NCBI GenBank assembly: GCA_016208965.1
Contig: JACQXB010000008.1
Coordinates: forward strand, 1 to 60,010
Direction: 5' to 3'
From: Nitrospirota bacterium
Lineage (GTDB): Bacteria; Nitrospirota; Thermodesulfovibrionia; UBA6902; DSMQ01
DNA length: 60,010 nt
Every line of letters starts with the position of its first letter. Within the stretch, counting starts at the first letter, position 1. The position numbers were made by a program. Positions 24,001 through 27,000 of this stretch are shown here, piece after piece.

Positions 24001-27000
24001 TTGTTAAGCCTCTCATTTTGTATGCAAGCCTTAGCAGTTTCCTTGTGTCTAAGTCTTTCTCCCTAAGCTGAATCGCCTTAGCACCTCCTTTTAACGCTTC
24101 CCTAACGGCAGTGAAGAAGTGAGAAGTGAGAAGTGAGAAGTGAGAAGTTTTTACAAGATGCTTTCTATTGGTAACGAGATATAACCTAAAATCAATGTCG
24201 TTTCTCATTTTAACTTCCTACTTCTTATTTCCTACTTCTCACTTTTAAAGCATTTCCTCAATAGGACTGCTTGCAGTTGCATACAATTTTTTCTGTATCC
24301 TGCCTGCATTGTATGCCAAGCATCCTGCTATAACTGCATGTTTCATTGCAGTTGCCATGGCTATAGGGTCGCGTGCTCCTGCAATTGCAGTATTTATTAA
24401 AACTGCATCACACCCAAGCTCCATTGCAACAGTTGCATCAGAGGCGGTTCCAACTCCTGCATCAACAACTACAGGGATATTAAGTTCTTTCATCTGTTCA
24501 AGTATTATCTTTATGTTGTAGGGATTCCTTATGCCAAGTCCAGAGCCAATTGGCGCGCCAAGCGGCATAACTGCTGCTGCCCCGGCATCAACAAGCCTTT
24601 TGGCTATAACAGGGTCGTCATTTGAGTATGGAAGCACGATAAAGCCCTCTTTTGCCAGTATCTCTGTTGCCTTAAGCAATCCGCATACATCCGGGAAGAG
24701 TGTTTTCCCATCACCTATAACCTCAAGTTTTATGAGATCAGAAATCCCTCCTTCCCTTGCGAGTCTTGAATACCTAATCGCATCTTCAACTGTGTAACAG
24801 CCTGCTGTGTTTGGAAGGATTTTGTATTTCTTAGGGTCAATATAATCAAGCAGGTTTTCAGACTTTCTATCAAATATATTCACTCTCCTTACTGCAACTG
24901 TTACAACATCAGAGCCTGATGCCTCTATTGCCTTTTTCGTCTCTTCAAAGTTTTTATATTTCCCTGTGCCCACCCAAAGGCGCGATTTAAACTCAATGCC
25001 TTTTATAACTAACCTATCTTCCATAAATTCTCCTTAATAGAATAAATTCTAAATTCTAATATCTAAATCCTAAACAAATTATAAATTCAAAATTTCAATG
25101 TTCCAAACAGGCTAGAGTTTAGGATTTTGTATTTAGGATTTGCCTTTACTATCCTCCTCCTACAAAATTTACAATTTCTACTGTGTCGCCGTCTTTTAAT
25201 TTATAAGCAGGGTAATCACATTTTTTTATGATATTAAGATTAACCTCTACTGCTACTCCTTGAGGCTTAATCTTCAGGCTATCAAGAAGCCCTGATAGGG
25301 TAGTGTCTTCTTGAACTTCTGATGGCGTTCCGTTTAATTTAATCTTCATAATTTTTAGTTTTGAATTTTGAACTTTGAATTTTGAGTTTTTTAGTTTATA
25401 CATGCACGTCCCTTTCACCCTCTTCAATTAATTTAAATTTCTCAAAAATCCCATTCCCTGTTTTTTCAGACTCCTCTTTAAGCCTTTTGATTAAGAGTTG
25501 TTTTATATCCTCCGGTGCATAATCCTCTATATATTCCTTAAGCGTCAAAAGTGCATTCTGCTCACACAGTTCTTTAATGCCCTGACCTTCTGCAAGTTCC
25601 TTGAATCTTTCACCACTCCGACCCTCCCTGTAACATGCTGTGCACAGGCTTGGTATAAGACCGAGTTCTGCAATTTTTTCTATAACATCTTCAAGGCTGC
25701 GAAGGTCTGCAACTTCAAATTGGGCAGTGTCGCTGTCCTCTATATATCCCAGCGGGCTTGTCCTTGAACCTGCTGATACCTGTGAAGCACCTATTAAGAA
25801 TAACTCATCTCTTAGATAGGCAGGCTCCCTTGTGGAAATAACAATACCAACATAAGGAAGAGCCAGTCTGTATATTGCAACTATCTTTTTAACGTCCATA
25901 TCTGAAACCCTATATCTTGACCCTCTAAATTTAGATCCCTCTGCAGGCTGAAGCCTTGGCACGGAAAGCGTATGTGGACCAAAACCATATTTTTTAATTA
26001 GTCTATGGCTATGGGCAATCAGCACCCACACATCCCACCGCCAGTCATAAAGACCAAGAAGCACGCCCATGCCTATATCCTCAAAACCTGCCTCTATTGC
26101 CATGTCCATAACACCGAGTCTCCAGTTATAATCTGATTTAGGTCCTGATGGATGAAGCATTCTATATGTAGGTATGTGGTAAGTCTCCTGAAAACACTGA
26201 TAAACGCCTGCACCGCAATCCTTTAGTTTTTTGAAATCCTCTATACTCATAGGAGGCGCATTCACATGCAAAATTCTTATGTCAGTGTTTTTATAGATGG
26301 CATCAATAACCGATTCAATGTAATTTATGCCTGCTAATTTTGGATTTTCGCTTGTTACAAGGAGAAGTCTCTTGTATCCCTTTCCTGCAAGCAAGGATGC
26401 CTCGCGGAGCGCCTCGTCTTTACTAAGGGTTTTCCTTTTTGCCTTGGCATTACCTGTTCTAAAGCCGCAATAGAGGCAGTTATTTATACATTCGTTTGAA
26501 AGGTAAAGCGGAGCAAAAAGCACTATCCTCTTGCCATAGACTTTTTCTTTAATCTTACGGGCTGTATCAAACACCTCATCCCAGAGGTCTCTGTCTTCTA
26601 ATGCTATGAGACATGAGACTTCACTGAGGCTTAGCACTTGGAGTTCTAAGGATTTAACGAGGATGTCCCTGATAATAAATTTGTCAGTTTTTACATCATT
26701 TTTTTCTAAAACAATATTCATCAAAAAACAAAAACCGTATCCCTGAAGAGATACGGCTTTATCCTCCCTTCCCTCCGCCGGTATTATCCGTTTCAGGTTC
26801 ATGGGGTCTCCCACAATCAGAACTAAGATTTCAGAACACAGATATCAGACTTCTTATTCTGTATTCTGTGCTCTGAGTATGGGACTCTCAGGTATTAACC
26901 CCGCCTACAACGTAGGCTTTTACCTCCCCCAGGGTAGTTAAAGTATAACTTTTAATAAGGATTGTGTCAATAAGCTATAAAGTCAAAGAAGGTTTTAGTA

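Follow-up and report, generated by a model that had tools for sequence, protein, structure and literature searches.

The window, i.e., the whole 60,010-nt stretch of Nitrospirota DNA analysed here, comes from a genome that is 88% complete (G000) and holds a thiamine operon headed by a hydG-like gene, the only one of its type found in that genome. The genes are ordered hydG-thiS-thiG-thiE-thiC on the same (minus) strand, as an earlier note on this DNA had stated. New relative to that note is the leader, with a putative promoter, TPP riboswitch and terminator. In the direction of transcription the features are:

26942..26970, minus strand: sigma-70-type promoter-like site TTGACA-17-TATACT, 11 of 12 consensus matches, both boxes kept in six relatives
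26765..26936, minus strand: predicted TPP riboswitch aptamer, located with RF00059 and alignment; two of its stems carry insertions, of which that in P3 is the longer (about 60 nt)
26723..26760, minus strand: intrinsic terminator-like hairpin with U tract, 13-pair stem, arms kept in 7 of 7 aligned leaders
25396..26721, minus strand: hydG-like gene, predicted thi-type radical SAM tyrosine lyase of HydG architecture, 441 aa; the open frame reaches 26814
25149..25349, minus strand: thiS, sulfur carrier with GGG at its end (TIGR01683 79.8 bits, cut-off 37.45)
24245..25024, minus strand: thiG, thiazole synthase (PF05690 365.8 bits)
23531..24208, minus strand: thiE, thiamine-phosphate synthase (TIGR00693 177.9, cut-off 145.1)
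22207..23490, minus strand: thiC, HMP-P synthase (NF009895 623.9; TIGR00190 610.9)
21576..22160, minus strand: FmdE-family protein with C-terminal zinc finger (PF02663 119.5 bits), 46 bp after thiC

The hydG-like gene likely starts at ATG 26721, which gives the same 441-aa form as database protein P0002. The start assigned earlier, ATG 26802 (ORF 25396-26802, 468 aa, P0001), falls within the TPP aptamer. Residue numbers nevertheless follow the 468-aa P0001 throughout. No counterpart of the FmdE-family gene was seen within 6 kb on either side of relatives' loci, so it probably does not belong to the conserved operon. Two neighbouring genes for multiheme c-type cytochromes of 514 and 507 aa (18417-21502, plus strand) converge on the operon end. 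Moreover, 7-nt tandem repeats were found at 23850-23883, 24110-24148, 25043-25094, 25350-25390 and 26816-26869, i.e., in frame inside thiE, between genes and in the riboswitch P3 stem.

We analysed the leader by Rfam search and by alignment with six relatives that pass the gathering threshold. At this threshold the window leader gave no match; in E-value mode the 3′ half of RF00059 was matched with 33.7 bits (E 9.4e-5; gathering 54.3), a shortfall that we ascribe to the 7-nt tandem repeats and the two stem insertions. In the alignment, the aptamer core motifs CUGAGA, GAACCUGA, UAAU and GCG-AGGGA were all present together with P1, and the same alignment contained the promoter boxes, the P4/P5 motif and the terminator. 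Promoter-like sites were no more frequent in the leader region than in shuffled sequences, hence the evidence for the promoter is its conservation, not the scan. Folding of the leader RNA gave a z of −4.94, and the terminator-like hairpin is likely the expression platform of the switch. Of 20 order loci (L001-L020, of 30 fetched), 18 have a TPP switch that passes gathering immediately before the gene, and among thi-linked loci from outside the order 8 of 10 carry a TPP switch ahead of it. Predicted TPP control of the thi-linked type spans three phyla-level groups. At one locus a c-di-GMP-I riboswitch (L224:2852-2959) precedes the TPP switch by about 1.8 kb.

The profile scores, structure matches and motifs on which the HydG assignment had been based were all reproduced. 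The protein scores 422.7 on the HydG profile TIGR03955 (cut-off 312.15) and 293.6 on the ThiH profile TIGR02351 (cut-off 380), and its best matches among solved structures are HydG 4wcx_A (2.5e-117) and 4rtb_A, then ThiH 7pd1. It carries CX3CX2C at 105-112, His277 in a GPHT motif and CX2CX22C at 387-413; both cysteine motifs are present in 36 of 36 order rows. An AlphaFold2 model (pLDDT 87.4) superimposed on 4wcx_A including the C-terminal domain with TM 0.94, rmsd 2.0 Å and 44% identity, compared with TM 0.72 for ThiH. His277 aligns with 4wcx chain position 279. The histidine of the dangler iron is given as His265 in T. italicus HydG (PMC8855341), and the offset of 14 correctly maps F81, E133 and F192 of PMC9046217 too. 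His277 and the three auxiliary cysteines are kept together in 73 of 77 thi-linked rows, in all 36 order rows and in 92 of 97 hydrogenase- or [NiFe]-linked rows. Moreover, the five tyrosine-binding residues described for TcThiH (T299, R300, R306, S318 and S321; PMC9046217) are kept as T324, R325, R331, S343 and S346 and are invariant in alignment A1.

Although its architecture is that of HydG, the protein is no true HydG as had been implied by the term "full HydG-type": it belongs to a separate lineage and lacks seven near-fixed residues. In a set of 44 chosen long-form rows, thi-linked and hydrogenase-linked proteins split with support 100/99. Among hydrogenase-linked rows R177, N179, T200 and I321 are each found in 97 of 97, T318 and M401 in 99% and K405 in 87%; the thi type replaces them (R177I, N179H, T200V, T318V/A, I321V) and is variable at 401 and 405. 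We infer from the strand register in the model that these seven positions line the lower channel of the barrel: strand 177-181 ends at N181, which is aligned to the substrate-facing E158 of ThiH, and T200 precedes the gate residue F204. The F96/F204 gate is itself HydG-type. N181 occurs in 76 of 77 thi rows, compared with E in 22 of 22 ThiH rows. Position E133 of TiHydG was rejected as a discriminator, since both types mostly have Val there (76 of 77 thi rows, 78 of 97 hydrogenase rows). We also considered that the auxiliary domain might be vestigial. This was ruled out by dN/dS, which was 0.067 for the auxiliary core and 0.073 for the barrel (10 pairs, one locus entering twice and three near saturation), so purifying selection acts on the domain as it does on the barrel.

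Within the order, the count given for the hydG-like type in the earlier note (29 of 31 genomes) held on a larger sample: 52 of 61 genomes have a gene above the HydG cut-off, and three more have partial genes at contig ends. Its neighbours are constant as well. In the best-scoring 30 order loci thiS is adjacent in 30 and thiG in 29. Counting partial genes too, 55 order genomes carry the gene, and in 50 of them thiG lies less than 1 kb away; of the other five, three have thiG on another contig, and in two, where the gene stands at the end of a contig, no thiG was found. We discarded co-loss statistics for the gene and thiG (Fisher p 2e-5), because neighbouring genes drop out of MAGs together and are thus not independent observations; for the same reason their joint absence in five MAGs is not independent evidence. 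ThiH over cut-off was found in 0 of 301 phylum genomes, ThiO over cut-off in 0 of 61 order genomes and Thi4 in 0 of five genomes tested.

HydF was absent from 64 of 64 order genomes, in line with the former 0 of 31, and the best HydE score in G000 was no higher than 57.8 bits. The H-cluster domain PF02906, formerly 0 of 31, now has one positive among 64 genomes, G054, which is 7% contaminated and contains two copies. These copies have SSYCPA or SSFCPA instead of the usual TSCCP motif, and we take them to be non-catalytic. Their two similar loci (L031, L032) have NuoE-like and regulatory-looking neighbours and lie in a genome without HydF. The description of the order as hydrogenase-less was wrong as worded, since 2 of the 5 order genomes tested encode [NiFe] large subunits. 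None was found in G000, G003 (99%) and G007 (97%), all of which carry the hydG-like gene.

The order-specific setting proposed earlier gave way on wider sampling: the thi-linked type is also found in other Nitrospirota, in deltaproteobacteria and in Moorella. Among 40 phylum loci, families f20, f21, f24 and f25 are thi-linked, and f7, f11 and most f23 copies stand with hydA/hydE/hydF; PF02906 was absent from five thi-linked Nitrospirota genomes tested outside the order. In the phylum of Halodesulfovibrio, hydG-thiS-thiG occurs in 16 of 20 intermediate-scoring loci (these loci were chosen for retrieval), and 7 of the 16 genomes hold a second, higher-scoring HydG. The Bacillota Moorella mulderi, Moorellaceae AZ2 and Peptococcaceae UBA12545 have two copies each, as does G504. 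In the three named pairs, one copy scores 642-649 bits and lies beside hydE in a genome with HydF; the other scores 433-453 bits, follows thiE-thiS-thiG and bears the thi-type signature. The seven-position signature is present in the Moorella thi copies and not in their paralogs.

These data bear on the question whether the thi-type protein is still a maturase that forms CO and cyanide, for [NiFe] hydrogenase or another metal-carbonyl site, its position in thi operons being incidental or secondary. The protein does retain the S340-Q341 pair and every auxiliary ligand, [NiFe] hydrogenases are encoded in two of the five order genomes, and in another Nitrospirota family a HydG-HydE module sits in [NiFe] operons. 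However, such [NiFe]-linked HydGs group within the clade of the hydrogenase type and retain R177, N179 and T200, and three genomes carry the gene with no [NiFe] subunit found. The thi-type gene moreover has no hydE and is under predicted TPP control across three phyla-level groups, and genomes that need a maturase hold a second copy. We hence regard a maturase function as most improbable.

Several further HydG forms were observed in the survey. In family f26 (L036, L037, L038, L040, L045, L061, L068) and at L222 and L246 (also P0122, P0124, P0272), HydE-HydG ends a group-3b-like [NiFe] operon, in some cases fused into a single HypC-HydE-HydG protein (about 900 aa); PF02906 and HydF were absent from 5 of 5 high-quality f26 genomes tested. 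Proteins P0160 and P0276-P0279 (about 1100 aa) combine a complete HydG-like domain with a GAF and histidine-kinase region. Hydrogenase-linked HydGs at L048, L049, L051, L052 and L190 have the second auxiliary cysteine replaced (CTAG, CTAD). L241-L243 are divergent long-form paralogs (TIGR03955 299-331 bits) with a CxxCP motif, third copies in genomes that have HydG and ThiH as well, with no thi or hyd neighbour found. Fusions to a thiamine enzyme were found neither in 15 long representatives scanned nor in 14 longer homologs (the latter result being weak evidence), and the 770-aa frame of L073 was rejected as a fusion because it crosses an assembly gap.

We propose that the hydG-like enzyme very probably makes dehydroglycine for ThiG, i.e., that it takes ThiH's role under predicted TPP-riboswitch control. 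This retains the core of the earlier reading, a HydG-architecture lyase supplying ThiG, and strengthens it by the TPP switch, the lack of any ThiH, ThiO or Thi4 found and the Moorella-like paralog pairs; the parts calling it a true HydG, order-specific and a replacement of ThiH are not supported. Since the five tyrosine-binding residues are kept, the radical SAM site would cleave L-tyrosine to p-cresol and dehydroglycine, a reaction common to ThiH and HydG (PMC9046217, PMC10114646). Dehydroglycine would then exit through the F96/F204 gate down the barrel, where the lower channel, rebuilt by seven substitutions, would no longer break it into CO and cyanide; this, together with the part suggested next for the second iron site, is the weakest step. 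That a HydG-type barrel can release dehydroglycine follows from HydG without its C-terminal domain, which is described as a ThiH-like protein giving mainly 2-iminoacetate (PMC10114646, section 5). For the second iron site our preferred guess is a barrel cap and imine holder: together with the retained [4Fe-4S] auxiliary cluster, the iron at His277 would close off the barrel and keep the water-labile imine in place for uptake by ThiG. ThiG would use dehydroglycine with ThiS-thiocarboxylate and DXP, the ThiF-family activator being encoded elsewhere in 60 of 64 genomes, and at high TPP the terminator would shut the operon off.

Another role conceivable for the auxiliary site, beside dehydroglycine formation, would be to mobilise sulfur from an iron-bound cysteine for ThiS. 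It would fit the position of thiS immediately downstream in 30 of the best-scoring 30 loci, the binding of L-cysteine to the dangler iron described for HydG (PMC10114646, section 5), and G000, in which no ThiF-family gene was found. G000 is only 88% complete, however, the 60 of 64 order genomes named above contain a ThiF/MoeB-family gene, and in another Nitrospirota family thiF directly precedes the thi-type gene. Against sulfur mobilisation there are also short forms in or beside the thi lineage (L070-L074) without the dangler His or the auxiliary domain, three of them in thiS-thiG-thiE operons. We therefore consider this role quite unlikely. The same short forms imply that the auxiliary domain can be lost from thi operons. 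L071-L073 (family f24), L070 and L074 are HydG-type barrels that score below both cut-offs and lack most or all of the domain; they are likely secondary ThiH-like forms and natural truncation controls.

Some observations speak against dehydroglycine supply to ThiG by the hydG-like enzyme. ThiH E158 is absent (N181) and the HydG-type F/F gate is present. Furthermore, the auxiliary domain of HydG is described as capping the exit proposed for ThiH (PMC9046217), and the same domain is kept here, which leaves the hand-over route to ThiG unexplained. One genome that is 97% complete (G065) has a thiF-hydG-type locus, and thiG was not found in it.

A further point concerns the source of dehydroglycine in related bacteria. 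Of the 301 phylum genomes 281 encode ThiG, ThiO was found in 0 of 121 genomes of the class, and 10 of 10 thiG loci from genomes without thi-type HydG read thiS-thiG-thiE with no dehydroglycine gene. Such thiS-thiG-thiE(-thiC) loci were seen in anaerobic Nitrospirota in which no ThiH, ThiO or thi-type HydG was found (L218, L265, L266, L268-L274). Within the order itself, G001 (99% complete) has the TPP switch directly before thiS, and the hydG-like gene appears cleanly missing between them. Another dehydroglycine supply must therefore exist, the hydG-like enzyme may not be the sole supplier, and our failure to find an alternative weighs less than it seems. The same gap has been remarked on in Geobacteraceae (PMC3543383). 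The hole in the pathway thus becomes sharper: most anaerobic relatives keep thiG without ThiH, ThiO or thi-type HydG.

We built trees with ThiH as outgroup to place the thi-linked lineage. Before the trees we dropped L067 (fragment), L164/L165 (overlaps), L228 (internal stop) and duplicates, as well as 49 of 150 representatives that were short, contained X or lacked a motif; L075 (long branch) was dropped after the first tree. That tree (177 rows, 12 Bacillota ThiH) gave a thi-linked grade below all hydrogenase HydG, a reading abandoned when wider sampling yielded one sister clade, although the AU test gave p 0.47 for the basal-grade placement. With 318 rows including 101 library representatives, thi-linked and hydrogenase-linked forms were sister clades (SH 95 and 86), and an LG+C20 tree agreed with weak support (70 and 83). 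None of six placements was rejected by the AU test (p 0.19-0.64; LG+G4, short searches). The thi-linked lineage is thus separate; the position of the root is unstable, so that either direction of evolution is possible.

The wording "replaces ThiH" in the earlier note, meaning recruitment from the hydrogenase pathway, is consequently neither supported nor rejected by the trees. Such recruitment of a hydrogenase HydG to thiamine synthesis, with spread by transfer, would be compatible with our proposal and concerns direction only; the other option is a long-form common ancestor. N181 and the F/F gate are HydG-type, and nesting inside hydrogenase HydG is not rejected by the AU test (p-AU 0.64, 0.27, 0.19 and 0.19 for four placements), one nested placement even having the best likelihood under LG+G4. 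In contrast, no unconstrained tree nests the thi lineage, i.e., neither the basal grade nor the two sister topologies. We therefore hold recruitment to be possible but less likely than not. More speculatively, the second iron site of HydG might not originally have been a CO/cyanide factory, and the iron-based dehydroglycine holder of the thi lineage might be ancestral to hydrogenase HydG. We rate this as unlikely; if true, the seven lineage-specific positions would mark the change from dehydroglycine carrier to CO/cyanide synthase.

In the literature searched we found no description of a thiamine-linked long-form HydG; sequence-similarity networks in supplementary files, which lay outside this scope, could already show the cluster. 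According to one sentence in PMC9147846, on Ruminococcaceae that for the most part lack thiG, hydE/hydG paralogs "may participate in place of" thiH. This is a passing idea on ordinary maturases and does not refer to the thi-linked lineage. The auxiliary cluster and dangler His, treated as a mark of CO/cyanide formation, are here conserved under selection in a predicted thiamine enzyme. As dehydroglycine fragmentation by HydG is called the last grey area of the mechanism (PMC10114646, section 5), the natural paralog pair of Moorella mulderi, a cultured and non-pathogenic organism, with seven fixed differences makes this question directly testable. For annotation, thi-type proteins pass the HydG equivalog and bear the HydG name in NCBI, which leads to false calls of [FeFe] maturation and false thiH gaps.

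How does the locus compare with known systems? The riboswitch shares all core motifs and the downstream terminator with RF00059 and differs by insertions in two stems (33.7 vs 54.3 bits). With HydG (TIGR03955; T. italicus 4WCX, C. hydrogenoformans 4RTB), the window protein has in common the fold, CX3CX2C, the CX2CX22C domain and the dangler His, as well as the F/F gate, Asn at the ThiH E158 position and a score above the cut-off. Unlike HydG, it stands in a TPP-controlled thi operon without hydE, hydF and hydA, belongs to a separate lineage and lacks R177, N179, T200, I321, T318, M401 and K405. With ThiH (2-iminoacetate synthase, TIGR02351; T. carboxydivorans 7PD1), it shares the pathway slot beside thiS/thiG, the tyrosine-binding residues, the radical SAM barrel and, likely, the same net reaction. 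It differs from ThiH by about 85 more C-terminal residues with the second cluster motif, by its score below the ThiH cut-off, by N for E158 and by F/F for the usual Y76/Y181 gate. In contrast to engineered C-terminally truncated HydG variants, the natural one has retained the domain, on which purifying selection acts. It is thus HydG-built and likely ThiH-like in its predicted working, and a formal member of neither family.
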